A DNA stretch of 64,000 nt from Promethearchaeota archaeon (GTDB taxonomy: Archaea > Asgardarchaeota > Lokiarchaeia > Sigyniarchaeales > SOKP01), in the NCBI GenBank assembly GCA_048940925.1, contig JBHLOC010000017.1:22636-86635 (forward strand). Direction: 5' to 3'. Below, piece by piece: positions 25,352-44,879 of the stretch. A program made the position numbers and the translations under genes. The notes under the pieces are model-generated. The model worked only from the letters and a program-made list of their open reading frames with translations. It was not told the origin of the DNA and did not search any database. The first letter of the stretch is position 1, and every line of letters starts with the position of its first letter.

Positions 25352-26827
25352 ATGGTTAAAAAGAAGAAAGAAGCTCCTATAATGGGAATAGCTGTGTCAA
25401 AAGAAGAGGATTTTTCTGCATGGTATACAGAATTAATCAACAAAGCAGAGTTAGCGGATATTAGATATAATGTTAAGGGTTTTGTTGTATATAGAGAATG
25501 GGCGACAATTACCATTAGGAAAATGTATAAAAAAACAGAAGACTTGTTGGATAAAAAGGGACATCTCCCATTAACAATGCCTTCCCTTATTCCTGAATCA
25601 AATTTTTTAATAGAGTCTCAACATGTTGAGGGATTTTCTCCTGAAGTATTTTGGGTTACAGAAGCAGGTAGTTCTGGTAAATTATCGGAACGTTTGGCAT
25701 TACGCCCAACAAGTGAGACTGCTCTTTATCCTATGTATGCTTTATGGATAAGGAGTTATAAGGATCTGCCATTTAAGAGATACCTATCTTGTCAAGTTTG
25801 GAGATATGAAGGAAAAATGACAAGACCATTCTTTAGGGGTAGAGAATTTCATTGGATTGAATCTCATAATGTATTTGCTACAATGGAAGATGCCATGGAA
25901 CAAGTCAAGGAGGATATGGAAACAACTTATCAAATTCTTCAAGATGAATGCTGTATTCCTCTCATATTTTTCCAAAGACCGGAATGGGATAAATTTCCAG
26001 GAGCAGTTCATACTTATGCTGCTGATGCACTGATGGGATCTGGAAAAGTTTTACAACTACCTTCAACCCATCTATTAGGGCAAATTTTTTCAAAACCGTT
26101 TAATGTAAAGTTCATAGATACTGATGGGAAAGAAAAATATGGATATCAAACTTGTTATGGCCCTGCTCAGAGTAGAAACTATGGCGCTATGATCGCGTAT
26201 TTAGGAGACGATAATGGCTTAGTCTTACCATTTGACTTAGCACCAATCCAGATTATTATTATTCCAATAATTTATAAAGGAAAAGAGAAGTTAGTGTTAA
26301 ATAAAGCAGAAGAGATTTACAATCTCTTCAAAAACAAGTATATAGTCAAAATTGATGATTCCGAAGAATCAGTAGGCAATAAATTCTATTATTGGGAATT
26401 GAAAGGTGTGCCGATTAGAATTGAAGTTGGACCACAAGATTTAGAAAATCAACAGGTTATTGTTGTTAAAAGACATGATGGGAAGAGATTCGAGATAAAG
26501 GAGAAAGATTTAGAGAAAAAGATTGATGAAATTGCTCAAAATTATACAAAAGAAATAAAAGGAAAATCTTTAATCGATTTTGAATCTCAAGTTCAAGAAG
26601 TCTATGAAAAAGATGCTGCAATTGATGCAATAAATAACGGAAAAATAGTCTGTTGCGGTTTTTGCTCAATTGATATGGATGCATATCACTGTGCTGAGGT
26701 TGTTGAAAAGGAAATTGGTGGTTTTGTGCGGGGAAAAAGAGTTGATGAGGAAAAACATGAATTTGCCACATGTTTAATATGTGGAAAGCCAGCAAGTTGC
26801 ACTGTGTATATCGCTAAAAGCTATTAA
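25352..26827 (+). CDS. proS: Proline--tRNA ligase (archaeal/eukaryote type)
   Basis: FSAWY, LALRPTSET, FFRGREFHWIESH, WELKGVPIRIEVG and a C-terminal Zn module ending AKSY. Confidence 0.96.
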   Translation: MVKKKKEAPIMGIAVSKEEDFSAWYTELINKAELADIRYNVKGFVVYREWATITIRKMYKKTEDLLDKKGHLPLTMPSLIPESNFLIESQHVEGFSPEVFWVTEAGSSGKLSERLALRPTSETALYPMYALWIRSYKDLPFKRYLSCQVWRYEGKMTRPFFRGREFHWIESHNVFATMEDAMEQVKEDMETTYQILQDECCIPLIFFQRPEWDKFPGAVHTYAADALMGSGKVLQLPSTHLLGQIFSKPFNVKFIDTDGKEKYGYQTCYGPAQSRNYGAMIAYLGDDNGLVLPFDLAPIQIIIIPIIYKGKEKLVLNKAEEIYNLFKNKYIVKIDDSEESVGNKFYYWELKGVPIRIEVGPQDLENQQVIVVKRHDGKRFEIKEKDLEKKIDEIAQNYTKEIKGKSLIDFESQVQEVYEKDAAIDAINNGKIVCCGFCSIDMDAYHCAEVVEKEIGGFVRGKRVDEEKHEFATCLICGKPASCTVYIAKSY

Positions 26828-27080
26828 ATTGCTATAAAGTGCTTTGTTGTTAATAAATTTTTAACTTTTTCTAATTCATTAATATTTTTGATTACAATTC
26901 TCTTTCTTAAATCTATTTTTGTTTAGAAAAATATAATTAAAACTTATACCTAAATTGCAAATTTAAATGAAAAGCCTTTGGAATAATGAATATGAGCATT
27001 GATTGGCTTATTAATAATTAATATATTATGGCAATTAAGGTATTTAATTTTAAATGAATTTGTTAATTCTGCATTGGTTT

Positions 27081-29534
27081 TCAAGTGATTTTAACATTAA
27101 TGAATAATTCTTTAATATCTGATGGAGGTAATGGAACAATATTATTTTCGATTTGTTTGTTATTTACGAATACTAATGATTTATTACCAACACCTACGCG
27201 TTCTACAGATACATTATACTTAACACCACGGAAAATACGAATTGCTTTAAAGCTCTGCCAATTTTTAGGAATTATTGGTGAAATAAATAATCCCTCATAA
27301 TCAGGACGTATCCCCAGAATCCAATTCATTATTGCGATATAATTCCACGCTGCCGAACCTGTCAACCAAGAATTTTTTGCTTCCCCATAATTTGGGGCAT
27401 CCTTTCCAGCAATCATTTGCGCGTAAACATATGGCTCACATCGATGAATTTCACTAATATTCTCTCGCGCTGAAGGATTTATTCGAGTGTAATAATCATG
27501 AGCTTGATCTCCATTTCCAACAATTGTTTCAGCAATCATAATCCATGGATTTGTATGACAAAAAATAGAACCATTTTCCTTATATCCTGGAGGATAAGAA
27601 GAAATTTCACCTAAATGCAAGTAATATCGAGAATATGCAGGTTGAAGGAGCATAATACCATGGGGGGTAGCCAATCTATTCTTCACAGACTTGAGTGCTC
27701 CCTTAACTAAATTTTCCTTTATACCAACTCCCGCAAAAATGCAAAATCCTTGTGGCTCGATAAAGATTTGACCTTCATCACATTCATGCGAACCAACTTT
27801 GTTTCCAAAATCATCATAAGCCCGAAGAAACCATTCCCCATCCCAACCATAATTTAAAGTAATTGAAGTCATTTTTTCTGCCCAATCAAGATAATTTCTC
27901 GATTCATTAACAAATCCCTTATGTTGGAGGATTTCAGAAAATTCTTTGCTAGCAACAATAAACAATGATGCAATAAAGATTGATTCTGCTACTTTACCTT
28001 CCTTATTTTTAGTTGTTTGGAACGAATGATCAGGACTTTCTGAAAAACAGTTAAGATTTAAGCAATCATTCCAATCTGCTCGACCTATTAATGGTAATCC
28101 ATGTGGTCCTAACCGATTATGAATGTATTCAAGACTAAGTTGAAGGTGTGTTAATAGAGATTTTTCAGTTCCAAGTTCATTTTCGAATGCTATTTGTTCG
28201 TCCAATATACTCCAGTCTCCTGTTTCTTTCAAATATGCAGCAACACTTAATACTAACCAGAGAGGATCATCATTAAAATCGCTCCCAAGCTCATGGTTTC
28301 CCTGTTTAGTTAGTGGTTGATATTGATGGTAAGCTCCCCCTGTTTTAAGTTGTGTAGCTGCTAGATCTAGAATTCTATTTTTAGCTTGTAAAGGGGCCAA
28401 ATGTACATAGCCTAATAAATCTTGATTAGAATCACGAAATCCTATTCCTCTGTTTAATCCAGATTCAAAAAATGAAGCGGATCTTGAAAGTTGAAAAGTA
28501 ATCACACATTGATAAGGATTCCAAATATTTATCATTCTATTAGTATGAATGTCAGGCGTCTCAACTCGAAATTTATTTAATATGGTATCCCAGTAACTAT
28601 TTAGAGTTTTTAAAGCATTATCGACATTTATAGGATTTTCATATTTTTTAATTATTTTCTTAACAGAACTTTTATTTATTTTCTGAGATCCCACTGGTTC
28701 AAATTTTTCTTCAATTTGATTCTCATGATACCCTAGAATAAATATAATTTGCTTTATTTCTTTAGGATTTAGGATAAATTTAACATGATGAGAACCTATT
28801 GGTGCCCAACCATGAGCTTCTGAATTAAATGATTGTCCATTTTCTACAACGATTGGGTTTTTCCAACTTCTATATAACCCTAAGAATTTATCTCGCTGTG
28901 TGTCAAAACCTTCCAAAGGGTTTGAACAAGAAAAAAATGCAAAATGGTTTCTTCTTTCACGGTATCCAGTCTTATGATAAATTACTCCATCTTCAACTTC
29001 AATCTCACCGATGTTCAAATTGCGCTGAAAATTGGCAGAATCATCTTTAGCATCCCACAAACAAAATTCAATACAAGAGAAGATTGATAAATCGATAGGT
29101 TTTTTACGATAATTTTCAATTGAAAGTTGCCAAATTTCTAAGCTATCTCCTAAAGGTACTATATAGCGAATTTTAGCTTTAATTTTTTTATAAAAAGAAC
29201 TAATTATAGTATATCCTAAACCATGTCTGCACTTATATTGCTCTACTTTATTTAGAGTTGGTTGCCAGGTTGGAGACCAAAATTCTTTTTTTTTATTATC
29301 TCGAATATATAAGTATCGTCCGCCAAAATCAGTAGGAACATTATTATGACGATATCGAGTTAATCTTCGCAATCGAGCATCCTTGTAAAAAGAAAATCCA
29401 CCAGCAGTGTTGGAGATAATACTAAAGTATGATTCACACCCTAAATAATTAATCCATGGAAGAGGAGTATCTGGTCTTGTAATGACATATTCCTTGTTTT
29501 CATCATCAAAATATCCATATTTCAACATATTCAC
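27081..29534 (-). CDS. cbp: GH94 cellobiose phosphorylase
   Basis: YGYFDD..KEYVITRPDTP.PWINY, GIGFRDSNQD, CBP-type RADWNDCLNLNCFS..P..SFQT, KENGSIFCH and EAKNSWLTG. Confidence 0.88.
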   Translation of the reverse strand: MNMLKYGYFDDENKEYVITRPDTPLPWINYLGCESYFSIISNTAGGFSFYKDARLRRLTRYRHNNVPTDFGGRYLYIRDNKKKEFWSPTWQPTLNKVEQYKCRHGLGYTIISSFYKKIKAKIRYIVPLGDSLEIWQLSIENYRKKPIDLSIFSCIEFCLWDAKDDSANFQRNLNIGEIEVEDGVIYHKTGYRERRNHFAFFSCSNPLEGFDTQRDKFLGLYRSWKNPIVVENGQSFNSEAHGWAPIGSHHVKFILNPKEIKQIIFILGYHENQIEEKFEPVGSQKINKSSVKKIIKKYENPINVDNALKTLNSYWDTILNKFRVETPDIHTNRMINIWNPYQCVITFQLSRSASFFESGLNRGIGFRDSNQDLLGYVHLAPLQAKNRILDLAATQLKTGGAYHQYQPLTKQGNHELGSDFNDDPLWLVLSVAAYLKETGDWSILDEQIAFENELGTEKSLLTHLQLSLEYIHNRLGPHGLPLIGRADWNDCLNLNCFSESPDHSFQTTKNKEGKVAESIFIASLFIVASKEFSEILQHKGFVNESRNYLDWAEKMTSITLNYGWDGEWFLRAYDDFGNKVGSHECDEGQIFIEPQGFCIFAGVGIKENLVKGALKSVKNRLATPHGIMLLQPAYSRYYLHLGEISSYPPGYKENGSIFCHTNPWIMIAETIVGNGDQAHDYYTRINPSARENISEIHRCEPYVYAQMIAGKDAPNYGEAKNSWLTGSAAWNYIAIMNWILGIRPDYEGLFISPIIPKNWQSFKAIRIFRGVKYNVSVERVGVGNKSLVFVNNKQIENNIVPLPPSDIKELFINVKIT

Positions 29535-29635
29535 CTGCCTAATGTTTAAATCAAAAAAAAATCAGAAAATTTTATTGTTTTAACTGACCTTTTTTTTTAA
29601 AGAATTATAAATTCTCATATGGACCTTCATTATCT

Positions 29636-30436
29636 TTATTCCAATTCCCATTTACGATAAATGCTTGGTACACAAGCTAATAAATTTTGACTGTATGGAT
29701 GTTCAGGGTTGAGAAAAACGTCTTTTGTTAAACCTTGTTCCACAATATTACCTTCTTTCATAACTATTACTCGATCTGATACATATTGCGCTTGTCCTAT
29801 ATCATGTGTAATAAAGATTACTGATATCCCTTCTGTATGAGTTGTCCCCTCTTTTAATTCTTTAAAAAGGTTTAAAATATCTGCTCGAGAGCTCGAATCA
29901 ATCATACTTGTTGGTTCATCTGCAATTATTAATTTAGGTTTAAATAATAATGCCCTTGCAATTAAAACACGCTGTAGTTGACCTCCCGAAATCTGATGTG
30001 GAAATCTTCCAAAAATATCGTCTGTGTTAAGTCCCACAATACTTAATGAAGTTTCAAGAGCTTTTCTTTTATTGGTAATATCCTTTAGAGTATATTTAAA
30101 AGCTTGATTTAACATATGATCAATTCTATAAAAATAATTAAAAGAACTATAAGGGTCTTGAAAGATCCCTTGAACATTTTTATAATAATCTTTTGTTGGG
30201 ATATCATGGATTTCTTTCTCTTCATAATATATATCTCCTTCAGTTGGTTGAATAAATCTTAAAATTAAATTAGCAATAGTTGATTTTCCACTTCCACTTT
30301 CACCAACAAGAGAGAGAATTTCTCCAGGATATAACTTAAATGAAATATTTTTAACTCCTATTGTTTCCTTGGATTTTAAAAGACCAGAGGTATATACCTT
30401 TGTAAGATTTCGAATATTTAATGTTTCATTCTTCAT
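29636..30436 (-). CDS. oppF: Opp/Dpp-type ABC transporter ATP-binding subunit
   Basis: GESGSGKS, FQDPYSS, ISGGQLQR, ADEPTS and HPYS. Confidence 0.9.
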   Translation of the reverse strand: MKNETLNIRNLTKVYTSGLLKSKETIGVKNISFKLYPGEILSLVGESGSGKSTIANLILRFIQPTEGDIYYEEKEIHDIPTKDYYKNVQGIFQDPYSSFNYFYRIDHMLNQAFKYTLKDITNKRKALETSLSIVGLNTDDIFGRFPHQISGGQLQRVLIARALLFKPKLIIADEPTSMIDSSSRADILNLFKELKEGTTHTEGISVIFITHDIGQAQYVSDRVIVMKEGNIVEQGLTKDVFLNPEHPYSQNLLACVPSIYRKWELE

Positions 30437-30438
30437 TT

Positions 30439-31437
30439 TTAATTACCACCCTCCTCTGGTAACCAACAAGCTACTGGATTTTTATTTTTTCCTGAAAAGA
30501 AAAATGGGGGATAGTTATCCTTGCATTTTTCCAATTTATATGGACACCGTGGATAAAATCTGCAACCTTTAGGGGGACGCTTCAAATCTGGAGGTCTTCC
30601 TGGAATTCCCTCTAATTTTGTTTCGGCAGATCCATCTGGGTTAAAACACGCAATTGAATTTATCAACATTTTAGTATATGGATGTTGAGGATAATTAATA
30701 ATATCGTCCATACTTGCCTGTTCGACAATTTTACCAGCATACATTATTATGCATGTATTGCAGATTTGAGCTAAGGTGGGAAGATCATGAGAAATAAATA
30801 ATATCGTCTCAACTATTCCTATTTCCTTTAGATTTTTTAATGTTTTTATCAAAAGTTGTTGAGTAGTGACATCTAATGCACTTGTTGGTTCGTCTACAAT
30901 CAAAATAATTGGATTCCATAGAGAAGATATTCCTACAACGACACGTTGCTTCATCCCTCCACTAAGTTCATGTGGATATTTATCTATAACTGATTTTTCT
31001 AAACCTAATTTTTTAAAGTGTTCGATTACTCGGTGTAAGACTTTTTCTTTATTTTTAGGTTTTGTCCCTACGCGTTCCCTCATTGCATCTATTATAAAAT
31101 CTTTAATCTTTTTAACTGGGTTTAATGAATTCAGGGAAGCTTGAGGCACATATCCAATCACTTTACAGAGTATTTCTTTTCTTATAACTTCCTCATCTAA
31201 TTCATACATTGACATATCATTAACATAAACTTGTCCTCCTTCATGTTGCAGCATCTGTATTGGTGTTCCTGTTATTAGCTCTGCTAGAGATGTTTTTCCG
31301 CAGCCAGATTCACCTGCTATTGCAACAATATCTCCTTTTTTAACAGATAAAGATACACCATCAACAGCATGAACAATTCCAAATGATCCTCTATAATAAC
31401 CTTTAAGATCTTGTATCTTAATTACTTCTTGAGTCAT
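30439..31437 (-). CDS. oppD: Opp/Dpp-type ABC transporter ATP-binding subunit with Fe-S tail
   Basis: GESGCGKT, LSGGMKQR, DEPTSALD and GCRFYPRC. Confidence 0.9.
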   Translation of the reverse strand: MTQEVIKIQDLKGYYRGSFGIVHAVDGVSLSVKKGDIVAIAGESGCGKTSLAELITGTPIQMLQHEGGQVYVNDMSMYELDEEVIRKEILCKVIGYVPQASLNSLNPVKKIKDFIIDAMRERVGTKPKNKEKVLHRVIEHFKKLGLEKSVIDKYPHELSGGMKQRVVVGISSLWNPIILIVDEPTSALDVTTQQLLIKTLKNLKEIGIVETILFISHDLPTLAQICNTCIIMYAGKIVEQASMDDIINYPQHPYTKMLINSIACFNPDGSAETKLEGIPGRPPDLKRPPKGCRFYPRCPYKLEKCKDNYPPFFFSGKNKNPVACWLPEEGGN

Positions 31438-31465
31438 ATTTAAATTTCTTACTCTTTTTAATATT

Positions 31466-32386
31466 TTATTTTGTTCTTTGTTCGAATGTTCTACTTAGAC
31501 TAGATTGTACAACAAAAAATGATAGATATATTAATATCAAGCAAATTCCGGGAGGTATCCATAGCCAATAACTAAATGAAGTTATCCAAGCAAAATCTAC
31601 TGCATGATTTAATAATAAACCTAATGTTAACCAATTTTGTTGTCCCAAGCCAATCATAGCTATTCCTGCTTCAATTATAATTGCATTACCTAAAAAAATA
31701 ATAAAGGCTAAGAGAACATATGGTAACACATTAGGTAAAACTTCAGTGAAAGCTATTCTCATATCTTTTAAGGCTGACATTTTTGAAACTTTTATAAAAT
31801 TTCTTTCTTTTAATGTTAATACTTGAGATCTAATAGAACGTGCAGCCCAAGGCCAAGTGAATAATGCAATAACTAACATCGTTATCCACCATTCACGAAT
31901 TTCTAAAATGGCTGACATTAATAAGATGAAAGGTATCTGGGGAAAAACTAAAGCAATATTCGTCATAAAGGAAGCAATAGCATCTACAACTCCTCCTTTA
32001 AAGGGCCCAACTATACCTAGAAACACAGCTATACCAGTACAAATCCCACCAGTAACTAACCCAAATGCTAAAGAATTTCTAACAGCATGTAAAAGACGAG
32101 TTAACTGATCCCTTCCAGCTTGATCAGTACCTAACAAATGTTTAAGTGAAGGTTTAGCGTAATTATCTAATGAAACATCGCGTATTACCCAATATCGTTT
32201 TTCAGGATCATTAAAGGGGGGTATTAATGTTAAAATTACAATTATGAGTACTACAATAAAAAAAACTAACATCAAAATAATTTGCCGTTTATATCGATCC
32301 ATTGCGGCATGAAATTTTTCTTTGATGATCTCCTTTGTACTTATTATTTCTTTTAATTCTTCCCAATTATTTATTTCTTTCGCCAT
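31466..32386 (-). CDS. oppC: Opp-type ABC transporter permease
   Basis: HLLGTDQAGRD, WAARSIRSQVL and WLWIPPG. Confidence 0.9.
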   Translation of the reverse strand: MAKEINNWEELKEIISTKEIIKEKFHAAMDRYKRQIILMLVFFIVVLIIVILTLIPPFNDPEKRYWVIRDVSLDNYAKPSLKHLLGTDQAGRDQLTRLLHAVRNSLAFGLVTGGICTGIAVFLGIVGPFKGGVVDAIASFMTNIALVFPQIPFILLMSAILEIREWWITMLVIALFTWPWAARSIRSQVLTLKERNFIKVSKMSALKDMRIAFTEVLPNVLPYVLLAFIIFLGNAIIIEAGIAMIGLGQQNWLTLGLLLNHAVDFAWITSFSYWLWIPPGICLILIYLSFFVVQSSLSRTFEQRTK

Positions 32387-32388
32387 AT

Positions 32389-33486
32389 TTATGCTTCTCC
32401 TTTACCTCCCACTCGTATTCTTGGATCAAGAAGTCCATAACTCAAATCTATAAGATAATTCCCCACAACTACAACTAAAATAGTTACTATAAAAGTTCCA
32501 ATAATCAATGAATAATCCAGCGCTTGAAAAGCTCGAAGCATTGTATATCCTAAACCAGGAAATCTAAAGATTACTTCTGTAATCAAGGTTGCTCCAATAA
32601 GCCCATTAAATCGTAAATTTAATCCAGTAAATTGGGGCAATATACTATTACGATATGCATATTTACGTAATGTACTGTCCCTAAATCCTAATTTTTTTCC
32701 ATATGATATATAATCCTCAGCTTTTTCATAAGCCATAAGTGCATATGCTCCAGTTGCCCACCCTCCAATGTTTGTGACAAGTAAAACAATAAAAGGTAGC
32801 CAATAATGGTCAAATATTGTAGAGATTGTACCCCAATCCCATGCCCAATTAGGTACAGATTCTCCCCAAGGGAACCAGTCTAATTGAAGAACAAATATAT
32901 CCAATAATACATAACCCATCCAAAAAAATGGTGCTACTTGTAAAATCACGAAAATATAATAGACTACTTTATCTTTTTTACTTTGGTTATACCCAGTACG
33001 GGCACCAATCCAATTTCCAATGAAGAAAGAAAGTACTAAAACTGGAACAACTAACATCAAAGTATAGGGAAGTGCCATTAAAACTATATTTACTACAGGT
33101 TCAAAGCTTTTCGTCGTAGATACCCCTAAATCAAAGTTAAAAAAGAAACTTTTTAAGAAATTAAGGTATTGAACATGCAAAGGATAATTTAATCCTAAAT
33201 ATTCTTCCAAGCCCTTTATAAGTTCTCGCCATGCTTCTGGATCGGTTCCCGGTGGTCTTTGATAAATATATTCTAAAGGATTTCCTGGTACCAGTCTTGG
33301 TATTAGAAAAGCCATTGAGATTGCTATGAAAAATACAACAAAATAGAAAATTCCTCTTTTAATTGCCATATGTAGAAGGGAATTTGAAGTGATTTTTTTA
33401 ATAATACTCTTTTCACTTGATTTTGAGAGTGTTTCTTGTTTTTCAAGTTCCTTTTTCTCTATTATATCCATTTCTGTTGTTTTCAT
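32389..33486 (-). CDS. oppB: Opp-type ABC transporter permease
   Basis: PRLVPGNP, EVIFRFPGLG and DLSYGLLDPRIR. Confidence 0.9.
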   Translation of the reverse strand: MKTTEMDIIEKKELEKQETLSKSSEKSIIKKITSNSLLHMAIKRGIFYFVVFFIAISMAFLIPRLVPGNPLEYIYQRPPGTDPEAWRELIKGLEEYLGLNYPLHVQYLNFLKSFFFNFDLGVSTTKSFEPVVNIVLMALPYTLMLVVPVLVLSFFIGNWIGARTGYNQSKKDKVVYYIFVILQVAPFFWMGYVLLDIFVLQLDWFPWGESVPNWAWDWGTISTIFDHYWLPFIVLLVTNIGGWATGAYALMAYEKAEDYISYGKKLGFRDSTLRKYAYRNSILPQFTGLNLRFNGLIGATLITEVIFRFPGLGYTMLRAFQALDYSLIIGTFIVTILVVVVGNYLIDLSYGLLDPRIRVGGKGEA

Positions 33487-33612
33487 TTTAGTATCATTAA
33501 TAAAGAAAGTTGTATATCTTTTATGATTACCTTAATGATTTAAAAATTCAATCGTTATAATTAAAAAAAAAAAAAAAAGTTAGTTTATTTTTGAAATTAC
33601 ATGCAGATATAT

Positions 33613-35571
33613 TTATTCCCTCTTTCTTTTTAATCTAAAAACTGTAACTGCTGCTATAGAAATGATCCCAATCAATATAAAGAGTTCTAAACCAAACCAT
33701 GGAATCACTCCCTTAGAAGGGAGTTTTCTGCCTGTGGATTCCAAGTTCAACAATAACCTTGTTTTAATTGCAAATTGATCATTTGTCCAAGTTGTACAAA
33801 TTTGTTGGAAATTATTCTTGGCATTAGTCCAGCCATCCCAAAGGAATCCATTGTAAGCATACCAGTAGCCATTAACAAAGCCAGGAATTTCTGGAACTTC
33901 TTGAGCTAAAATTTCTTGCATACGATTCAGATTTGCCTTATAAACTGTTTCATTTGCACTTTCAAGGGTCTGCCATAAAGCTTCAAATTCTTTATTCTGC
34001 CAATTAGTTGCATTTTTATTCCATAGGTGTACTCCTCTCATATAATCAAGAAATCTTTGAGGAGGATCTGATATTCGGTTTCCAACACAAAATAGAGCGA
34101 AGTCAAAGTCATTATCTGCTATCTTAGGTTGAAAAACTTTTTCATAATCAACTTGTGTGGCTTCAATCTCAATTCCCAAGTTTTCTTTAATATCTGCACA
34201 AACCATCTCCGTATATGACACAACATCACTCCAACCAGTAGGAACGATTGCTTCGTAGGGTCCAACTTTTTTATCGTTATATTTCCAGCCGTCATCTTCA
34301 TTACCTGTCATACCAGTTATGTTTTTTAATATTGCTATAGCTTTATCAACATCCAAAGATTTTTCATATTTTTCAGTAACAGATGCATTATAATATGGTT
34401 TATGTAATGCGCTATTATCATCAATATATCCCGGTTTCGATGTTGTCCAGTATCCAGAAGCAGCTGCATCAGGAATAGGTTCATAATTAATAGCATATGA
34501 TAAAGCTTCTCTGAATTCTTTTACTCCTAATGGTGAATCTTTAAGAAGATGATTCGGGGCAAGAGTTATAAGTGTACTCGCAGCTAATTGGTAAGGTTCT
34601 TCATGACCATACCAACAACTAATATATGATTTGACAGATCCCTCTTTAGCTCCTTCCCAAATATCCCAGATATGATGATAATAACCAGCATATAAATCAA
34701 TATTTCCTTTGATAAAGGCGAGATCTTGTTCGGTATTAGTAGCAAATCTAACACCTCCGATATATTTTGGAGGTTCCTTATCTGCGTTAGGGATATCTTG
34801 GTATAGCACTCCTGCTCCCCACCAGTCCTCTCTATACTGATATGCACATGTTGATTCTGATGCATCTCTGTAAACAGGAGCATAAGGACCAGAAATCACT
34901 TTCCATTTGTCAGGAACATCTTCTGAATCAAACCAATCATATTGATAGGTTCCTAAATCCATAGTATCCTTCTCTTCCACAATTTCAGTCCATACATCTT
35001 TAGGTACAATTGGAATATTATACTCAATCCAAATTTCAACCTGTCTACTATGGTTATAACCTGCTGTTGTGTTAATATCAAATCGCACAGTATCCTTATC
35101 TACTTTAGTAAAGTTGGTGAATCTCGCTGAAAAATCCTTTGTATATCTAGCTTGTGCTTGAGCAAGTTCATAACTATAAACTACATCATCAGCATCAATA
35201 GTTTCACCATTAGACCATTTAGCCTTAGAATTTAAGTCTATAGTAATACTATCACCAGTTTTACTCCATGAATAGTTAGTACCTATACATGGGATGAGTT
35301 TTCCTTTTTCACTATTATAACCAAATAAAGATTCATACATTAATTCTGAACCTGGTGGTAAATTAGTACTCCATGGGAGAAATTGAGTTGGAGAATCATA
35401 ACTTCCTGTCATCCATACAGTTTCCTCTCGAGGAGGTTCTTTTGTAAGAATTGCGGGAAGTTCTGTATTAGCAGGTTTCACTCGCGCTTGGGTTATAGGG
35501 ATCATAGTTATTGCCATCAAAAACAATAACCCAAATAATATTGTTATTGGTAATGTTTTGCCAAATCTCAT
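33613..35571 (-). CDS. oppA: Family-5 extracellular solute-binding protein (probably oligosaccharide-binding) with a C-terminal membrane anchor
   Basis: Signal peptide, YESLFGYN, KWSNGETIDADDVVYSY, FREALSYAIN and VPTGWSD. Ends with IPWFG, a TM helix and KRKRE. Confidence 0.88.
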   Translation of the reverse strand: MRFGKTLPITILFGLLFLMAITMIPITQARVKPANTELPAILTKEPPREETVWMTGSYDSPTQFLPWSTNLPPGSELMYESLFGYNSEKGKLIPCIGTNYSWSKTGDSITIDLNSKAKWSNGETIDADDVVYSYELAQAQARYTKDFSARFTNFTKVDKDTVRFDINTTAGYNHSRQVEIWIEYNIPIVPKDVWTEIVEEKDTMDLGTYQYDWFDSEDVPDKWKVISGPYAPVYRDASESTCAYQYREDWWGAGVLYQDIPNADKEPPKYIGGVRFATNTEQDLAFIKGNIDLYAGYYHHIWDIWEGAKEGSVKSYISCWYGHEEPYQLAASTLITLAPNHLLKDSPLGVKEFREALSYAINYEPIPDAAASGYWTTSKPGYIDDNSALHKPYYNASVTEKYEKSLDVDKAIAILKNITGMTGNEDDGWKYNDKKVGPYEAIVPTGWSDVVSYTEMVCADIKENLGIEIEATQVDYEKVFQPKIADNDFDFALFCVGNRISDPPQRFLDYMRGVHLWNKNATNWQNKEFEALWQTLESANETVYKANLNRMQEILAQEVPEIPGFVNGYWYAYNGFLWDGWTNAKNNFQQICTTWTNDQFAIKTRLLLNLESTGRKLPSKGVIPWFGLELFILIGIISIAAVTVFRLKRKRE

Positions 35572-37335: not shown

Positions 37336-37411
37336 TTATTATCAATTATCTCTTTTCGTTATATTTATGTTTTAAAATGAAGAAAAATCTATAAATTTAG
37401 ATAATTTAAAA

Positions 37412-38431
37412 TCATTCGTTCATAGTATATATAAAATTTCTTTCTCCTAGAATTTTATCGATTTCTTTCATTTGGTCCTTATTTAATGGTCCAAATTCCA
37501 TTGCTTGAATGTTTTCTTCAACTTGTTTTACTGTTTTAAATCCCGGAATAGGAATTGTTTTGTCGCTACGAGCCCAATTCCATGATAAAGCACCTTGAGC
37601 CATAGAACGCCCATCGCTCATGAGTACTTCTTTTATTTTTTCCAACTTTCCTAACCATTCTGGATCTGGTTTTCCCTCTTTGAAATATTTCAACCATTCA
37701 GGTGCATTTTTTCCTCTAACATCATTATCAGGTAATTTTGAATTTGCTGAATATTTTCCAGTAAGTAATCCCATTGCTAGAACTGTTCGATTCACACTTG
37801 CCAAATTGTTTTTTTCACATAGCTCGATTATTTCTCTTGTATCATGGAGAACATTTAACTCATGTTGAATCGCTACACAATTTGAATTCTTCACAAAATA
37901 TTCAGATAAATCTGAAAGATCTGTACTCCAACCATAAGACTTTATTAATCCCTCACTATTCAATTCGTCTAGGGTGTCTCTAACAGAAATGAGATCTTCT
38001 TTTGAAACAGACCAACAGTGTAACCAATATAAATCAATATAATCTGTATTTAATCGTTTTAAAGATGATTCACAAGCTTTTCTAATATATTCTGGCGTTA
38101 TATTTGTCCCTGTTATTTTTTTACGTTCTTTATCAAAGGTGTTCCCGAATTTTGTAGCTATAATAATATCATCTCTACATCCATTAAGTACTTTACCAAG
38201 GATTTCTTCACTATGCCCTGCGCCATATACATCTGCTGTGTCAAAGAAATTAACTCCTAAATCTATGGCACGATTAATTGCTCTAATTGACTCATTATCA
38301 TTAACGGTTCCATAACCTGCCTCAGTGCCTTCTACACGAGAAATTGGTCCACCAATAGCCCAGCAACCTAAACCTAAAGCACTTACTTTAATTCCTGTTT
38401 TTCCTAAAATTCTTTTCTTCATTTTTCCCAT
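37412..38431 (-). CDS. Aldo/keto reductase
   Basis: LGLGCWAIGG, FDTADVYG, IATKFG, SLKRLNTDYIDLYWLH and PIPG. Confidence 0.93.
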   Translation of the reverse strand: MGKMKKRILGKTGIKVSALGLGCWAIGGPISRVEGTEAGYGTVNDNESIRAINRAIDLGVNFFDTADVYGAGHSEEILGKVLNGCRDDIIIATKFGNTFDKERKKITGTNITPEYIRKACESSLKRLNTDYIDLYWLHCWSVSKEDLISVRDTLDELNSEGLIKSYGWSTDLSDLSEYFVKNSNCVAIQHELNVLHDTREIIELCEKNNLASVNRTVLAMGLLTGKYSANSKLPDNDVRGKNAPEWLKYFKEGKPDPEWLGKLEKIKEVLMSDGRSMAQGALSWNWARSDKTIPIPGFKTVKQVEENIQAMEFGPLNKDQMKEIDKILGERNFIYTMNE

Positions 38432-38682: not shown

Positions 38683-38772
38683 TTAATTAATACGGATAAC
38701 CATCTGGGGCGTAATTATAATGACTTTCTCATGGGTTTTATATTTTTTCTCGTCTGGATGTATTCGATACAT
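38683..38772 (-). CDS. Candidate 29-aa microprotein MYRIHPDEKKYKTHEKVIIITPQMVIRIN
   Basis: GAGGT RBS 7 nt before the ATG and a TTTATATAG box near 38849-38857. Divergent from the RHH gene. Confidence 0.45.
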   Translation of the reverse strand: MYRIHPDEKKYKTHEKVIIITPQMVIRIN

Positions 38773-38979
38773 TTTCTTTACCTCTTAATATTGTAATAAA
38801 TAGCAATAAAAAATTTAAATGTATTACAATTAATTAAATGTATTCATACTATATAAATATTTCTGATTTAAGATAGATTATCAGCTGATAGATATTATTA
38901 AATATGATTCAGAAATATTTATGAAGTTTAAGATATTACATTAGATCAGATGTATTTAAAGTGAAAAATATCTTTTAAC

Positions 38980-39636
38980 GTGAAAAGAGTGCCAAATAAA
39001 AAACTTACGTCTAATATAATTACTCTCCGCTTGGATAAATTTATAATTGACGAAATTGAACTTATCAAAGATACCTATGGTATCAAATCTACATCAAAGA
39101 TAATTAAACAAGCACTTAACCAATATCTCACTATGAATCCTATAAATCCCGAAAGACCAAATCCTAAAGTAATTTTGAGTCATAACATTCTTTCTCGCTT
39201 GCTGGAAGCAGCTGATGATAAAACCTTGGAGGAAATGGCTGAGATATCTTTTCAAAACGGAAAATCAGATCAAGAACAATGGGAAATTCGGGCCCAGACA
39301 AACAATTGTAAATTACCTTGTAAATATATTTCCAGTAATCTTGAACATGTAATCGAATTAACAAAATCTGTTTTTACTGTGGATGGTCAAAATTGGCTTG
39401 AAAGCGTCTCATACTCACAAAAAGGAAATGAGTTTATTTTTGAAGGAGAACATGACATGGTGCATAATTTTTCAATTTTTATTAAATACCTTCTCTCGAA
39501 ATATTTAGCAGGGGATGGTTATGAATTAATTCAAGAGGATTATTCCCAAATTCGTCGAATTGAAAAAAATTCTGGTGGGAGTTCTTCTGAAAAGTTATTA
39601 AATGGAATGAAACTCCATTTTTCGATCCCTGAATAA
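38980..39636 (+). CDS. Ribbon-helix-helix regulator with a C-terminal putative ligand-binding domain
   Basis: IITLRLD beta-ribbon, then helix, then STSKIIKQALNQYL. Confidence 0.7.
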   Translation: MKRVPNKKLTSNIITLRLDKFIIDEIELIKDTYGIKSTSKIIKQALNQYLTMNPINPERPNPKVILSHNILSRLLEAADDKTLEEMAEISFQNGKSDQEQWEIRAQTNNCKLPCKYISSNLEHVIELTKSVFTVDGQNWLESVSYSQKGNEFIFEGEHDMVHNFSIFIKYLLSKYLAGDGYELIQEDYSQIRRIEKNSGGSSSEKLLNGMKLHFSIPE

Positions 39637-39987
39637 TAATCTACAATTATATTCCGAAAAAAGATGCATGAAAATTGTGTTTTAGTTGTAACCCACCAGA
39701 TCGTTAAACTGAGTTGGATTTTTCGATTCTTTCATCTAAATCATCTTTAAAGTTTGCCATTTCAATGGAGACTAAGAGGAAATTTTTAAGGTTTATGCTT
39801 TTCTTAAATAATCATGCTCTCTTTTATTTTTTTAATTAAAGATTGAGTGATGATTGATTTTATTTATTTATATCGAAATAACATAAATTTTATTGAGATC
39901 TTAGTATTAAAATTAATATAGTTAGATATAAAAGTAGATCATATTAGAAAAGCTTTATTTAGAAGGCCTATCCTGGAATTTCTACGA

Positions 39988-40992
39988 CTAAATTGCATTC
40001 TCTTTAATAAATTCAATTAATTCATCGACTTTTGTATAGGCTAGGCAAGTAACTGTATCTGCAGCACCATAATAGATAGTAATCCGTCCTGTTTTGGAAT
40101 CTGTTAACATTGAACAAGGAAAAAATACATTTGGTACATCTCCAACGCATTCGTATAGCTTTTGAGGAGATAGCAAATAAGGTTTTGTTCTATACAAAAT
40201 TTTCCAAGGTTTTACAAGATCTAATATAGCAGCTCCCATGCTGTAAACAAAACCATTACAAGATGTTAATACTCCATGATATATCAATAACCATCCAATA
40301 TTAGTTTCTATAGGGTTTGGTCCCGCTCCAACTTTTGTAGATTGCCAAGTGAAAGGAATAGGTGTCATGACATGACGATGACAACCCCAATGAATCATAT
40401 CGGGACTTTCACTATAAAATATATCTCCAAAGGGTGTGTGACCATTATCACTTGGGCGATTTAACATTGCATATTTACCGTTAATTTTCCGAGGGAAAAG
40501 AACTCCATTTCTATTGAATGGTAAATAAGCATTTTCCAACTGATAAAAATTCTCAAAATCTTCTGTATATGCTACACCAATCGTAGGTCCATGATAATCA
40601 TTACACCAAGTGACAAAATATTTTTGATCTAATTTTACAAGTCGGGGATCATACCCATATTCGAAATTAGCAATCTCAGGATCCTCACATATAAATTTGA
40701 TTGGATTCTCATCTATTTCCCAAGAATATCCATCATCACTGAATCCTCTATGTAATTTCATTTCTCTGCTTTTATGGTCAACTCTAAAAACTCCTGCAAA
40801 TTTATTTTTATAAGGGACTACAGCACTATTAAAAATACTATTTGATTTTGGTATTAAATCACGGGGTATAATGGGATTTTTTGCTGACCTCCACACAACA
40901 TTTTTGTCATCTGGTGGGCGATCTTCCCAAGGAATATTAGCAAGAGGTTCTCCTATAATTTTAATTTTATCGTTCATAATTTTTTGTAGCAC
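39988..40992 (-). CDS. GH130 beta-mannoside phosphorylase (UhgbMP/RaMP2-like subgroup)
   Basis: IPWEDRP, SNSIFNSAVVP, YDPR, WCNDYHGPTIG, NRNGVLFPRKI, RPSDNGHTPFGDI and GDVPNV. Confidence 0.92.
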   Translation of the reverse strand: MLQKIMNDKIKIIGEPLANIPWEDRPPDDKNVVWRSAKNPIIPRDLIPKSNSIFNSAVVPYKNKFAGVFRVDHKSREMKLHRGFSDDGYSWEIDENPIKFICEDPEIANFEYGYDPRLVKLDQKYFVTWCNDYHGPTIGVAYTEDFENFYQLENAYLPFNRNGVLFPRKINGKYAMLNRPSDNGHTPFGDIFYSESPDMIHWGCHRHVMTPIPFTWQSTKVGAGPNPIETNIGWLLIYHGVLTSCNGFVYSMGAAILDLVKPWKILYRTKPYLLSPQKLYECVGDVPNVFFPCSMLTDSKTGRITIYYGAADTVTCLAYTKVDELIEFIKENAI

Positions 40993-41112
40993 TAAATTAT
41001 CACTTTAAAATACATAAATTAGGATATAAATCTAAGTAAAATTAAAAAACACTATCTTTTGACCTTTTTTATATTTACTCTATATTTTACATATAATTGA
41101 TTAAATTAATTT

Positions 41113-42201
41113 TCACATAGTATGTCTCTCATGTAAATGTTGATAAATGATTACACAAAATAAATAACTTATAATTCCAGTGATAAATCCAAATAAATGA
41201 GAGATATAATTAATATTGGGGTCGATGGTATAGATATAGAAAAAAATGCAAATAGGAATGTATATTATTAACCAATTATATTTTTTCTTTACAATTAAGA
41301 TAATAATAAATGCTCCAGCTAGTCCAAATATAGCTCCTGAGGCACCAGCTGATAATATAGAAGTAGTCAATTGAGAATTTATCAATATGTATCCTATATT
41401 ACCTGTCATACCAGAAATAATATATATTATATAGTATACAGGTTTGGAAAGAACATTATTAACTTCAAAATAGCTACCTACACAACATAAAAAAAAAGTA
41501 TTAATGAATAACGAAAATCTTTCCTTATGCATAAAGATTGCAGTAAATACTCTCCATATTTCGAATTTGTTTAAAATTTTCTGAATGTCTAGAAAAAAGA
41601 AATCTCCTATATGATATATCTCAATGAAAAAAATATAAATTATGATATTTATAAAGCAAGTAAAAAGAGTGAGTTTTATTTCTTTAATTTTTGGTGTATG
41701 AATTTGTCTTCTGTAGGTATCTAGAGCTACATATTCATCATACTTTTCGTTAACAAGATATTTTACAACTAATGGATCATCACCCCACAAATTTTTTAAA
41801 ATTTCGTAAATAAATACCTTTTTTGCGTGGGAATCCCCAACTTCAACTAATTTTCTCAATAGAGGGAATGATATATCATATAGTAGGATATCTGTATCAT
41901 AATTATTTTGTATCCACAATTTTAAAATATTAACAAAAATGTTAAAATAAGCTTTCTTTGAATCTTTTTTATATATATTTTTAGTGGATATACTTTGAGT
42001 ATTTGTTTTCTTTAATTGATTTTTGCTTGCTTTTAATATTTTAGTTATGATAGAATAATCAAATTCTTGAAATCTTTCTCCTTGGATATAAATTAATATT
42101 TTATTCTTTTCTGAAGAAATTGTAATATAATCACTAATTTTAATTTTTGAGTTCATAACAACTTCATAATTTAAATTTACTATTCTATCCAATTTATACA
42201 A
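41113..42201 (-). CDS. Rhomboid intramembrane serine protease with a soluble N-terminal domain
   Basis: WRVFTAIFMH, GASGAIFG (catalytic Ser) and SHLFG (catalytic His). ~170-aa soluble N-terminus. Confidence 0.88.
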   Translation of the reverse strand: MYKLDRIVNLNYEVVMNSKIKISDYITISSEKNKILIYIQGERFQEFDYSIITKILKASKNQLKKTNTQSISTKNIYKKDSKKAYFNIFVNILKLWIQNNYDTDILLYDISFPLLRKLVEVGDSHAKKVFIYEILKNLWGDDPLVVKYLVNEKYDEYVALDTYRRQIHTPKIKEIKLTLFTCFINIIIYIFFIEIYHIGDFFFLDIQKILNKFEIWRVFTAIFMHKERFSLFINTFFLCCVGSYFEVNNVLSKPVYYIIYIISGMTGNIGYILINSQLTTSILSAGASGAIFGLAGAFIIILIVKKKYNWLIIYIPICIFFYIYTIDPNINYISHLFGFITGIISYLFCVIIYQHLHERHTM

Positions 42202-42341
42202 ATTGATAACGTTATTTTATATTTTTCCCTGTTGTCGAATTCTTAAGAGTAAGTTGATAATTGACAACCTATAAGCATAATTATATTAATAATTTTGGCT
42301 TTTGTTTTCTATAATTATAAAAAAAAATGGGATTATTATAA

Positions 42342-44711
42342 ATGTTATATGGGTATTTTGATGATGAAAATAAGGAGTATGTAATTACAAGACCAGACAC
42401 TCCACTTCCATGGATTAATTATTTAAGTAATGGAAAATATTGTGCTATGATTTCTAATACTGGAGGAGGATATAGCTTCTATATAGATCCACGAGATCAA
42501 AGAATTCTTCGATACAGATATAACAATTTACCATTAGATAGACCAGGAAGATATATTTATATTAGAGACAATCAAACTTTACAATATTGGTCTCCAACTT
42601 GGCAACCTGTAGGTAAAAAACTTGAAAATTATAAGTGTAGACACGGTTTAGGATATACCATAATTAGTTCATTATATCAAGGAGTTCATGCTGAACTTTT
42701 ATACTTTGTTCCAATGACAGAAAATTTAGAGATTTGGGTTTTAACTCTCCAAAATAACTCATCTATAAAGAAAGAATTAAGTATTTTTTCATATGCGGAA
42801 TTTTGTCTCTGGAATGCTATATCAGATCAAAGAGATCTTCAATATATTCAAAATGTTGCAGTAGCAAAATATGATGAGACAGAAAATATTATTTTTTATC
42901 ATTTTTTTGATCAAACCTCGCTCATTGCCTTTTTTAGCTCAAATATTAATATTGAAGGTTATGATTGTGATCGTGAATCATTTATAGGTCGGTATCGTTC
43001 TGAAAAAAATCCAATATGTGTTGAAAATGGTAAATGTACAAATTCTGAAGCTCTCGGGGGTAATCCTGTTGCCTCAACTTTTAACATAATGACATTAGAA
43101 CCTCATGAAATTAAAAAAATTGTATTTATGTTAGGCATTGTTGAAAAAAAGTCTCAAATAAAACCATTAAATGAGAAGTATAAGGAATTTAACAATGTTC
43201 AGATTGAATTTTTAAAATTAAAAGAAAATTGGGATAATTATCTTGAAAAGTTTATTGTTGATACTCCTGATAAAAATTTTAATTCTATCATTAATGTTTG
43301 GAATCCTTATCAATGTAAAACTACTTTTGATTGGTCTCGTTATGTCTCTTTTTACGAGACAGGTATTGGTAGAGGTATAGGTTTTCGCGATAGCAATCAA
43401 GATACTCTAGCTGTTTGTCATGTTCTTCCTAAGAATGTTCGTAATCGGTTACTAGAACTTGCAAAAATTCAATTTGAAAATGGAAAAGTATATCATCTTT
43501 ATTTCCCTCTTACTGGTATGGGTGGCTATCCTGATTATGTTAATCCACTTATGAAATTCTTTGGCGATGATCATCTATGGATGATATTTGCTGTTAGTAA
43601 TTATTTAAAAGAAACAGGAGATATGTCAATTTTGGAAGAAAATGTAGATTTTGTTGAGGGATCTAAAGAAAGTTTATATGAACATCTTAAACGAGCAATT
43701 AAATTCACAAATAATCACATGGGTCCTCACGGATTCCCATTAATAGGTACTGCTGATTGGAATGATACACTTCAGTTACATGGCCCAAATAAAAATGGTG
43801 AAAGTGTTATGGTTGCTATGCAACTACATAAAGCATTATTAGATATGAGTGAAATTGCGTATGAATTCGATGTAAAGAATAATTCTACTAAATTCAATAA
43901 TATGGCAAAAATGGTAAAGGAGCATATAAATAAATATGCATGGGACGGTCAATGGTATATTCGTGCTTTTACTGATGATGGGGAAGTTATAGGGAGTCAA
44001 AAAAATAAAGAAGGGAAAATTTTCCTAAATACTCAATCTTGGGCAGTTGTTAGTAAAGTTGCTCCTATAGATAGAGCATTTCAAAGTATGAATTCTGTTA
44101 AGGAACATCTTGTCACTGATTATGGAATCAAATTATTAAATCCACCTTACACACGCTATTATCCTGAATTAAAAGGAATAAGTACTTTTCCACCTGGTCT
44201 TAAAGAAAATGCTTCAATCTTTTGTCATTCTAATCCTTGGGCAGAGATTGCTGAATGTATCTTAGGACGAGGTGATATCGCCTATAATTATTTTAAAAAA
44301 ATTGCATTGACCACCAAAAATGAAATCGCTGAAATACATCAAACTGAACCATATATCTTTTCTCAAATGATTACAGGCAATGATCATCCAAAATTCGGAG
44401 CTGCAAAAAACTCATGGCTTACAGGAACAGCATCGTGGACATTGAAAGCTGCAACAGATTGGATCCTTGGGATACGACCAGAATTTCATGGTTTAAAAAT
44501 AGATCCTTGTATTCCAAAAATATGGACTAAATTCAAAGTTATTCGATACTATAGGAATGCAATTTATGATATTACCGTTCAAAATCCAGAACACTTATCA
44601 AAAGGAAATGCAAGAATAAGAGTAGATAATATTAAGCAGGAAAAAAATCGTGTACCTATTTTCAAAGATGGCAGAAAACATATTGTTAAGGCAAAAATTG
44701 AGTTAGAATAG
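42342..44711 (+). CDS. GH94 glycoside phosphorylase (cellodextrin/chitobiose-phosphorylase-like; specificity unresolved)
   Basis: GH94 N-terminus, GIGFRDSNQD, DDHLW, ADWNDTLQL, KENASIFCH and KNSWLTG. Lacks the CBP-type LNCFS loop. Confidence 0.9.
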   Translation: MLYGYFDDENKEYVITRPDTPLPWINYLSNGKYCAMISNTGGGYSFYIDPRDQRILRYRYNNLPLDRPGRYIYIRDNQTLQYWSPTWQPVGKKLENYKCRHGLGYTIISSLYQGVHAELLYFVPMTENLEIWVLTLQNNSSIKKELSIFSYAEFCLWNAISDQRDLQYIQNVAVAKYDETENIIFYHFFDQTSLIAFFSSNINIEGYDCDRESFIGRYRSEKNPICVENGKCTNSEALGGNPVASTFNIMTLEPHEIKKIVFMLGIVEKKSQIKPLNEKYKEFNNVQIEFLKLKENWDNYLEKFIVDTPDKNFNSIINVWNPYQCKTTFDWSRYVSFYETGIGRGIGFRDSNQDTLAVCHVLPKNVRNRLLELAKIQFENGKVYHLYFPLTGMGGYPDYVNPLMKFFGDDHLWMIFAVSNYLKETGDMSILEENVDFVEGSKESLYEHLKRAIKFTNNHMGPHGFPLIGTADWNDTLQLHGPNKNGESVMVAMQLHKALLDMSEIAYEFDVKNNSTKFNNMAKMVKEHINKYAWDGQWYIRAFTDDGEVIGSQKNKEGKIFLNTQSWAVVSKVAPIDRAFQSMNSVKEHLVTDYGIKLLNPPYTRYYPELKGISTFPPGLKENASIFCHSNPWAEIAECILGRGDIAYNYFKKIALTTKNEIAEIHQTEPYIFSQMITGNDHPKFGAAKNSWLTGTASWTLKAATDWILGIRPEFHGLKIDPCIPKIWTKFKVIRYYRNAIYDITVQNPEHLSKGNARIRVDNIKQEKNRVPIFKDGRKHIVKAKIELE

Positions 44712-44715
44712 TCTC

Positions 44716-44879
44716 TGCTCAATTAATGTGGACATTTATCACTATCTTGAGGGTGGTAAAAATAAATTGGAGATTATGTGCGAGACAAACGACTCGATAA
44801 AGAAAAACAAAAATTTACTACTTGTATAAAATGCAGAAAACCTGCTGAATATATTGTATATATAGCTAAAAGTTATTAG
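44716..44879 (+). pseudogene. proS: Degenerate duplicate of the proS 3' end
   Basis: Reads CSINVDIYHYLEGGK[-1 nt, stop]IGDYVRDKRLDKEKQKFTTCIKCRKPAEYIVYIAKSY*, against proS CSIDMDAYHCAEVVEKEIGGFVRGKRVDEEKHEFATCLICGKPASCTVYIAKSY*. About 70% nt identity by manual alignment. Confidence 0.9.

Follow-up and report, generated by a model that had tools for sequence, protein, structure and literature searches.

An island inserted at the 3' end of proS in Promethearchaeota, with the displaced gene end retained beside it

Background

In a 64,000-nucleotide stretch of a Promethearchaeota genome (GenBank assembly GCA_048940925.1, contig JBHLOC010000017.1, positions 22,636 to 86,635 of the forward strand; the whole of it is called the window below), the 3' end of proS, the gene for prolyl-tRNA synthetase, recurs 18 kb downstream of the gene, and the two copies bracket a real insertion. 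The inserted DNA is predicted to be a carbohydrate-utilisation island; it lies at the junction between proS and its conserved right-hand neighbour, and the copy beyond it occupies the place of the former, resident proS end. We consider it probable, though well short of certain, that the island arose by a single insertion without a recombinase in the ancestor of the window's genome and two relatives, through homology-anchored recombination and an illegitimate joint, with a proS tail from the same lineage. Asgard genomes are large and transfer-rich, and the described routes of gene gain are integrases, transposons and viruses, mostly at tRNA genes. The present locus combines an 18-kb catabolic island with an essential synthetase gene beside it and has no recombinase gene of its own, and its scar, together with empty sites and related events, lets the polarity and the age of the event be read. 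The host is an Asgard archaeon, as had been supposed in an earlier reading of the window made from its letters (the original prediction), and belongs to the Loki type. Its genome, G000 below, is a metagenome-assembled genome (MAG) of 4.8 Mb; other G-numbers denote relatives (G018 being MAG YT1_007), L-numbers loci and C-numbers contigs.

Results and discussion

The two copies of the proS 3' end

The duplicated unit spans 171 nt from proS codon G436 to the TAA stop (26657-26827) and aligns in direct orientation, with 71-72% identity, to 44710-44879, right after the stop of the second of two GH94 phosphorylase genes (GH94b), where the original prediction had placed it. A repeat search resolves the match into two segments with an offset of 1 nt between them, namely 26706-26826 versus 44758-44878 (121 nt, 72%) and 26658-26709 versus 44711-44762 (52 nt, 73%). 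The right copy begins within or directly 3' of the GH94b stop (TAG, 44709-44711) and ends in a TAG at 44877-44879; it carries a 1-nt deletion after 44757 and an in-frame TAA at 44763-44765, which are the one frameshift and the one stop reported earlier. The protein sequence encoded by the left copy is typical for the genus. When the whole genome was searched in six frames with the proS tail, the only match besides proS was the right-copy fragment (E 2.4e-8, two stops); full-length proS is single-copy in G000, and all relatives have a full-length orthologue. The longest exact match between the copies is 10 nt, at their left edge; this absence of an attachment-site (att) core is ambiguous, because decay could have erased one. 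Local-alignment shuffle tests detected no significant continuation of the repeat past the proS stop into the spacer, which weakens a simple tandem-duplication origin. An upstream extension into the GH94b C-terminus was considered as well: a AAAAATTG match lies about 20 nt upstream and is followed by 12 nt with 9 mismatches, and was taken as chance. The fragment is located at the identical junction in two independently assembled MAGs, G018 and G067, so that neither chance nor mis-assembly explains the repeat.

Empty sites and the polarity of the insertion

The empty site has the order plsY-like gene, hypothetical gene, proS, a gene for a 58-aa winged-helix (wHTH) protein and a metallo-beta-lactamase-fold (MBL) gene, and the gap between proS and the wHTH gene is about 100 nt in 11 of the first 24 congeners examined. 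Among 80 named loci of related Promethearchaeota, each viewed with 3-kb flanks, at least 25 have the wHTH gene 43-141 nt past proS and then the MBL gene; the original prediction had proposed looking for proS followed directly by the 58-aa gene, and such sites do occur. G018 and G067 carry the same island in the same gene order, and the right junction reads alike in all three genomes: GH94b stop, proS from codon ~437, native spacer, wHTH gene, MBL gene. On the left, the DNA following the proS stop is alike in G000 and G018 over at least 160 nt (alignment score 76).

The 100-nt spacer 3' of the right copy aligns with the proS-wHTH spacers of empty sites in shuffle tests (p<=0.02 for G009, G023 and G007), whereas the DNA 3' of the functional proS stop has no similarity to native spacers in local-alignment shuffle tests (p 0.27-0.9). 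Because the spacer of the right copy matches the empty sites and the DNA past the functional stop does not, the right copy is, by position, the resident tail. The functional tail physically adjoins island DNA, and this agrees with the earlier proposal that the island entered at the 3' end of proS and pushed the old end aside. Only a few bases separate the end of the duplicated unit from the stop, and no discrete breakpoint is seen on the left side upstream of the stop. On the right, GH94b is full-length when compared with 11 orthologues, which puts the edge of the island at the native GH94b stop to within a few bases. Both copies of the repeat, at 171 nt longer than 30 bp, align to the one proS end that empty-site congeners have; the insert is shorter than 20 kb and contains no mobility genes.

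Divergence and phylogeny of the displaced ends

Differences at the first, second and third codon positions were counted over the 171 nt. The functional ends of G000 and G018 differ by 2/0/19, whereas the functional end and the remnant of G000 differ by 15/12/22 (chi2 p=0.83 against 1:1:1.7), those of G018 by 13/6/12, and the two remnants by 19/13/17. Counts of 15/12/22 agree with what is expected when a constrained copy and a neutral copy diverge in situ. Furthermore, the identities between remnants (72, 76 and 82%) follow those of the adjacent intergenic spacer (74, 83 and 86%). These substitution patterns show the divergence of the remnant to be neutral pseudogene decay and not synonymous divergence of two working alleles, and the earlier argument that the differences were synonymous and that both ends had once been functional alleles is not borne out.

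In a maximum-likelihood tree of 67 proS 3' ends, the three remnants form one clade (ultrafast bootstrap (UFBoot) 94, Shimodaira-Hasegawa-like approximate likelihood-ratio test (SH-aLRT) 78), which is nested with the functional ends of G000, G018 and L157 (83/88). The position of this clade among the ends of its own lineage indicates that the tail was displaced once, before G000, G018 and G067 split, and that both copies stem from a narrow lineage. The original prediction had derived the tail from another lineage and had itself named such a grouping as contrary evidence. The remnants also have shared derived sites. The G067 remnant is 91% and the G018 remnant 82% identical to the G018 functional tail, above any other genome, and the divergence between the copies inferred for the G018/G067 node is only ~4%.

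Decay has proceeded very unevenly. The terminal branches of the remnants measure 0.56 in G000, 0.33 in G018 and 0.08 in G067, and lineage-specific changes since the G018/G067 split number ~7 versus 23 (binomial p=0.005). The remnant of G067 (L058:327-498, contig C152) is in frame, stop-free and 9% different from the G018 functional tail, with 9 of the 15 differences in the first 54 nt; the functional proS of G067 is unassembled apart from 26 N-terminal codons at a contig end. This remnant may have been partly gene-converted by its functional copy. Alternatively, it could reflect a younger integration at the same junction, which is the main reason why an integrase model stays alive, and selection is also possible. 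It contains an internal ATG that opens an ORF (open reading frame) of ~50 aa.

Gene content of the island and variation at the junction

The features of the locus are collected in Table 1; the insert measures ~17.9 kb. According to Pfam, GH94 and GH130 phosphorylases are combined with a dedicated oligosaccharide importer and a regulator, i.e. the domain set of a phosphorolytic beta-glycan utilisation locus is present, and it is from this domain content that the 18-kb block is predicted to be a carbohydrate-utilisation island. The position of the gene for the 218-aa ribbon-helix-helix protein varies among island variants (G018, G063). The 58-aa wHTH gene on the right flank is conserved with 65-90% identity in more than 40 genomes. 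The GC content of the island (0.28-0.34, versus 0.26-0.32 in the flanks) gives no signal of foreignness, and the compositional difference that the original prediction had suggested checking for is thus not seen.

Table 1. Features of the proS locus (window coordinates) and the basis of their assignment
Feature	Coordinates	Strand	Basis and remarks
proS, prolyl-tRNA synthetase, 491 aa	25352..26827	+	Pfam tRNA-synt_2b, HGTP_anticodon, ProRS-C_1; intact
Left (functional) repeat copy, proS codons 436-491 and stop	26657..26827	+	
Island-left DNA directly 3' of the proS stop	26828..27080	.	At least 160 nt in common with G018; unrelated to native spacer
GH94a phosphorylase, 817 aa	27081..29534	-	Pfam Glyco_hydro_94 and GH94 supersandwich domain
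Opp/Dpp-type ABC importer, five genes (two ATPases, two permeases, family-5 binding protein)	29636..35571	-	Pfam ABC_tran with oligo_HPY, BPD_transp_1 x2, SBP_bac_5
ArsR/HTH_5-type regulator, 465 aa	35938..37335	+	Pfam
Aldo/keto reductase (AKR)	37412..38431	-	Pfam
218-aa protein, N-terminal ribbon-helix-helix domain	38980..39636	+	Pfam RHH_1, weak
GH130 phosphorylase	39988..40992	-	Pfam
Rhomboid-domain membrane protein	41113..42201	-	Pfam
GH94b phosphorylase, 789 aa	42342..44711	+	Pfam; stop is the right edge of the island
Right copy, displaced native proS 3' end, pseudogene fragment	44710..44879	+	Alignments; orthologous remnants in G018 and G067; tree
Native proS-wHTH spacer	44880..44979	.	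Homologous to empty-site spacers, p<=0.02 versus G009, G023, G007
58-aa winged-helix (wHTH) gene	44980..45156	+	Pfam HTH_11/HTH_24, weak; conserved right-hand proS neighbour in empty-site genomes
Metallo-beta-lactamase-fold (MBL) gene, next conserved right flank	45668..46567	+	Pfam; synteny

Pfam scans of all island ORFs, and of the variant inserts in G018, G065, G024, G008, G002, G012 and L115, contained no integrase, transposase or other mobility gene, in keeping with the description of the island as integrase-free in the original prediction. Likewise, no integrase, excisionase, replication or structural gene, or recognisable fragment of one, was found in five island-bearing genomes at the locus or in the other inserts there. 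A genome-wide search for PF00589 gave a single match in G000, on contig C41 and away from the island.

The proS-wHTH junction is a hotspot with differing cargo across Promethearchaeota: among relatives it is empty or holds MFS_2 and esterase genes, GH1, GNAT, DUF2061, a pepF-like fragment, a 476-aa ORF or the island. In G065 and G024 the island is present at this locus without a remnant, accompanied by extra GH1/GNAT genes and by other DNA past proS. The same island, from GH94a to GH94b, also occurs at an unrelated chromosomal locus in G059 (C12) and G046 (C69) (L162-L165). In G000, homologues of the genes that flank it at this other locus lie on contigs C57 and C70, which indicates that the cluster was relocated as a unit.

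Other displaced gene ends and exchange within proS

Related scars are found both at proS and within the island family. In another Promethearchaeota MAG (L115; CAZDTP010000021.1, 4380-5760) the last ~25 codons of proS are repeated past a 1.2-kb insert that contains one reverse ORF with a weak Peptidase_M3_N match. The crossover positions differ, being at proS codon ~436/437 in the window lineage and at codon ~465-467 in L115. The two L115 tails differ by 2/2/15, which rejects divergence in place (p=0.016). The functional tail belongs to a patch of ~100 nt, ending 7 nt past the stop, that has 76/78 identities (97%) to L135, while the proS bodies of the two are only ~77% identical. To judge by this patch, an imported tail has replaced the native one in L115. 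The earlier proposal that incoming DNA with the tail of another lineage rebuilt proS thus fails for the window lineage and holds for this independent event.

In G018 (C69; L035:12230-17420) a 4.7-kb insert with GH1 and GH2 genes separates the rhomboid gene from GH94b, and the GH94b 5' end is present on both sides of the insert as a repeat of ~57 nt; of the two copies, the displaced one on the left retains the G000-like native promoter region, and the functional 5' end is the more divergent one. In G041 (C8 ~5286-5474; L047:3903-4091) a fragment of the last 63 aa of GH94a (68%) lies on the same strand ~9 kb downstream of the full GH94a gene and directly upstream of GH94b, and this may be another displaced gene tail.

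When the proS of the window (25352-26827) was compared with L034, L015 and L157, the proS of G018 proved 89-97% identical to that of L157/G003 over nt ~0-1275, and only 69-75% identical to that of G000 in nt 825-1200. Yet the flanks of G018 are distant from those of L157/G003 and closest to those of G000 (hypothetical gene 87%, plsY-like gene 91%). Such mosaicism indicates that homologous exchange takes place at the locus. In G000 and G018 proS is a mosaic of several later exchanges, in which the donor tract is not resolvable. An isolated fragment of internal proS residues 282-323 (52%, one TAA) was also seen in G022 (C126:2150-2275; L045), on a contig unrelated to the proS locus of that genome.

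Origin of the island and alternative explanations

The data indicate a single insertion at the proS/wHTH junction, before G000, G018 and G067 diverged, and probably no site-specific recombinase was involved. The incoming DNA would have carried, or become joined to, a copy of proS codons 436-491 that came from the same narrow lineage and not from a distant one; proS thereby stayed intact, and the resident tail, now 18 kb downstream, has been decaying neutrally. The likeliest route would be recombination anchored by homology in proS, together with a single illegitimate joint directly 3' of the GH94b stop, either by homology-facilitated illegitimate recombination (HFIR) of linear DNA or, equivalently, by single-crossover integration of a circular fragment with a proS tail. 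The different breakpoint in L115 and the GH94b 5' scar in G018 argue for general recombination and against a fixed att site, and so do the mosaic proS, the island copies that lack a remnant or lie at another locus, the changing cargo of the junction and the unremarkable GC content. HFIR, circle integration and strict target duplication cannot be distinguished on the present data. The scheme of one-sided homology and an illegitimate joint provides a testable model for the spread of metabolic modules among uncultured Asgard lineages.

Several points weigh against this scenario of a single insertion without a recombinase. The right joint, between the GH94b stop and proS codon 437, has a microhomology of at most 1-2 nt and is uninformative. 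The G067 remnant is far less decayed than its sisters, and an extra event, partial gene conversion, is needed to accommodate it. No donor genome with the same post-stop DNA and no remnant was found, and the import of a tail is a step that we infer for the window lineage; as to candidate donors, G065 and G024 have other post-proS DNA (GH1, GNAT) and no remnant, and L157, whose tail pairs with that of G000, carries a 476-aa ORF in place of the island. It is also conceivable that an integrase was once present and disappeared before the three species diverged. To our knowledge, HFIR has been shown experimentally only in bacteria. Finally, all the genomes are MAGs, with a contamination estimate of 8.4% for G000.

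The last-mentioned circumstance bears on the prosaic explanation that unrelated sequences were fused at a short repeat into a chimeric contig, and the contigs of G018, G024 and G065 do break inside the island. We nevertheless regard an assembly or binning artefact as most improbable: three MAGs agree on the right junction and two on the left, the copies at 72% identity are too diverged to mislead an assembler, and both flanks are syntenic with relatives. A degenerate integrative element of the e14/icd or tRNA-island type deserves more weight, although we still think it unlikely. Here an integrase acting on an attP that mimics the proS 3' end would have integrated the element site-specifically, rebuilding proS and displacing the native end, and the integrase and the other element genes would later have been lost. 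The layout is identical to that of e14 between icd and the icdC fragment (PMC13626634), the three remnants have exactly the same junction, and their graded decay might, in principle, stem from integrations that recurred at a single att site. Yet the remnants are monophyletic with shared derived sites, which points to one event, and the copies share no identical core longer than 10 nt, although decay may have removed one. Neither the five island-bearing genomes nor the other inserts at the site hold an element gene or a fragment of one; the cargo is purely metabolic and native in composition. An element with a fixed site would also be at odds with the other breakpoint of the independent L115 event, with the same type of scar at the GH94b 5' end and with the presence of the island at the locus without any repeat in G065/G024.

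The remaining alternatives concern the source of the functional tail. It might have come from a clearly different lineage, in which case the 28% divergence would be mainly old synonymous difference between lineages. The contiguity of the functional tail with island DNA and the mosaic proS within the genus would both suit such an import, and L115 is exactly a case of this kind (2/2/15; tail 97% identical to L135, bodies ~77%). In the window lineage, however, the differences extend over all codon positions (15/12/22), the less decayed remnants are closest to functional tails of their own lineage (G067 91% and G018 82% to the functional tail of G018), the tree nests the remnants with the G000/G018/L157 tails, and the copies had diverged by only ~4% at the G018/G067 node, so that a foreign tail is already disfavoured and is somewhat less probable than an integrative element. 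Of slightly lower probability again is a purely local origin, in which a tandem duplication or the repair of a staggered break would have doubled the proS tail in one genome and the island would have landed between the copies, both of them recipient-derived (a strict target duplication). The near-identity of the copies at an early stage and their grouping in the tree would be expected from it, and published long target duplications have this form (PMC2853133). However, the end of the unit is only a few bases from the proS stop despite the ~100 nt of spacer that were available, the DNA past the functional stop is unrelated to the native spacer, and L115 shows that tails can be imported.

Comparison with known systems

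Insertion with long target duplication is said to have been described by Nobusato et al. in 2000. In this mode, long (30-420 bp) and variable direct repeats, single-copy in the empty genome and often overlapping the 3' end of a gene, flank inserts that lack a transposase or integrase (Furuta et al. 2010, PMC2853133). The cases are bacterial, mostly from naturally competent species, with restriction-modification cargo of less than 20 kb and near-identical repeats, and no archaeal case passed the screen (PMC2853133). The proS island resembles them in its direct repeats that align to a single empty-site copy, in the lack of a mobility gene and in its location at a gene 3' end; it differs in the Asgard host, in the 18-kb metabolic island as cargo and in the decay of the outer copy to 72%.

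HFIR itself was reportedly described by de Vries and Wackernagel and by Prudhomme et al., both in 2002, and C-terminal displacement in loci of the rhs/CDI/T6SS type (CDI, contact-dependent inhibition; T6SS, type VI secretion system) reportedly by Jackson et al. in 2009; we know of no demonstration of the process in archaea. For T6SS effector and rhs loci, HFIR has been proposed to account for 3' ends that were displaced (Kirchberger et al. 2017, PMC5361080). As in that proposal, the proS island would have one end held by homology within a conserved gene and the other attached by an illegitimate joint, with no need for an integrase, and its former 3' end persists downstream as an orphan; the junctions of the island are compatible with HFIR, though not diagnostic of it. 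In the rhs/CDI/T6SS loci, toxin tips are diversified by conflict-driven selection, and serial arrays are built up; here a near-identical sequence has taken the place of a housekeeping synthetase tail, and a catabolic island is what was brought in.

Prophage e14 and phage 21 in the icd gene of Escherichia coli were reportedly described by Hill et al. in 1989. The layout of e14 in icd with its icdC fragment is the same, and it is integrase-driven (PMC13626634). In both systems an essential or central metabolic gene is kept working by a 3' end that the insert supplies, and the native end persists as a C-terminal pseudogene beyond an insert of ~15-18 kb; e14, however, has an integrase and excisionase, a defined att core and SOS-induced excision, and none of these is seen in the island. 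Flexible genomic islands (PMC4033161) share with the proS locus a single site between core genes with varied cargo, a mosaic flanking core gene and niche-related transport and glycan genes; the classical replacement islands differ in being swapped by double crossover in both flanks, which leaves no duplicated gene end. The mobile elements described from Asgard archaea integrate at tRNA genes by means of an integrase (PMC8813620). The proS island is thus an archaeal, metabolic-island case of an insertion mode that is known from bacteria and whose mechanism is poorly understood. As the architecture has already been described in bacteria, the case is more useful than surprising. There are hints that this mode occurs commonly in G000.

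Displaced gene ends elsewhere in the genome

Displaced gene ends constitute a sequence signature that can be counted across genomes. G000 was scanned for them in a crude way: a tblastn comparison between 0.87 Mb of intergenic DNA and the terminal 70 aa of 3,765 ORF-called genes yielded 32 short fragments that reach the gene terminus and lie within 60 kb of the parent gene. As many as 20 of the 32 have the geometry of a displaced end (same strand, outer), 9 are on the same strand and inner, and 3 are on the opposite strand (p=8e-6 versus random placement; 20:9 for outer versus inner, p=0.03). The orientation bias appears real, but the scan is suggestive in nature, since hits that bracket core genes (lysK-gatBA) or fall in large families (MBL fold) may be paralogue debris. 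The cargo of the scan cases includes an MCP-domain protein, a trehalase, a peptidase M29 and a LAGLIDADG-domain ORF, and no recombinase was present in the cargo of ten inspected cases. In a partly verified instance (C58:85126-87995; L173:627-3496), a GH57 branching-enzyme-like gene is followed by a gene for a 264-aa protein with an MCP-signalling domain and then by a 24-codon copy of the GH57 tail; the MCP-domain gene is present after GH57 in 3 of 14 congeners.

Taken with the four scars of the island family (the proS tail of the window, the L115 proS tail, the G018 GH94b head and the G041 GH94a tail), the ~20 fragments of G000 and the GH57/MCP locus raise the possibility that gene-end displacement is a general, recombinase-independent way of capturing and swapping cassettes in Promethearchaeota. 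Short, conserved gene tails or heads would serve as anchors for recombination, the incoming DNA would bring or regenerate the end, and the old end would be left as a scar. We put this forward tentatively, leaning against rather than towards it. If true, it would supply a mechanism for the high rates of horizontal transfer and cassette turnover reported for Asgard genomes.

The displaced-end candidates of G000 are distributed over contigs C55, C58, C57, C30, C74, C83, C7, C46 and C71, with C-terminal pieces downstream and N-terminal pieces upstream of the parent gene. A 368-aa ORF with a LAGLIDADG_3 domain on contig C57 (L174:3949-5055), located between the gene for an AMP-binding enzyme and its tail copies, is the sole nuclease-like gene in the inspected cargo. 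Two serial tail copies, at 2.9 and 4.3 kb, are seen at C57:76581-77603.

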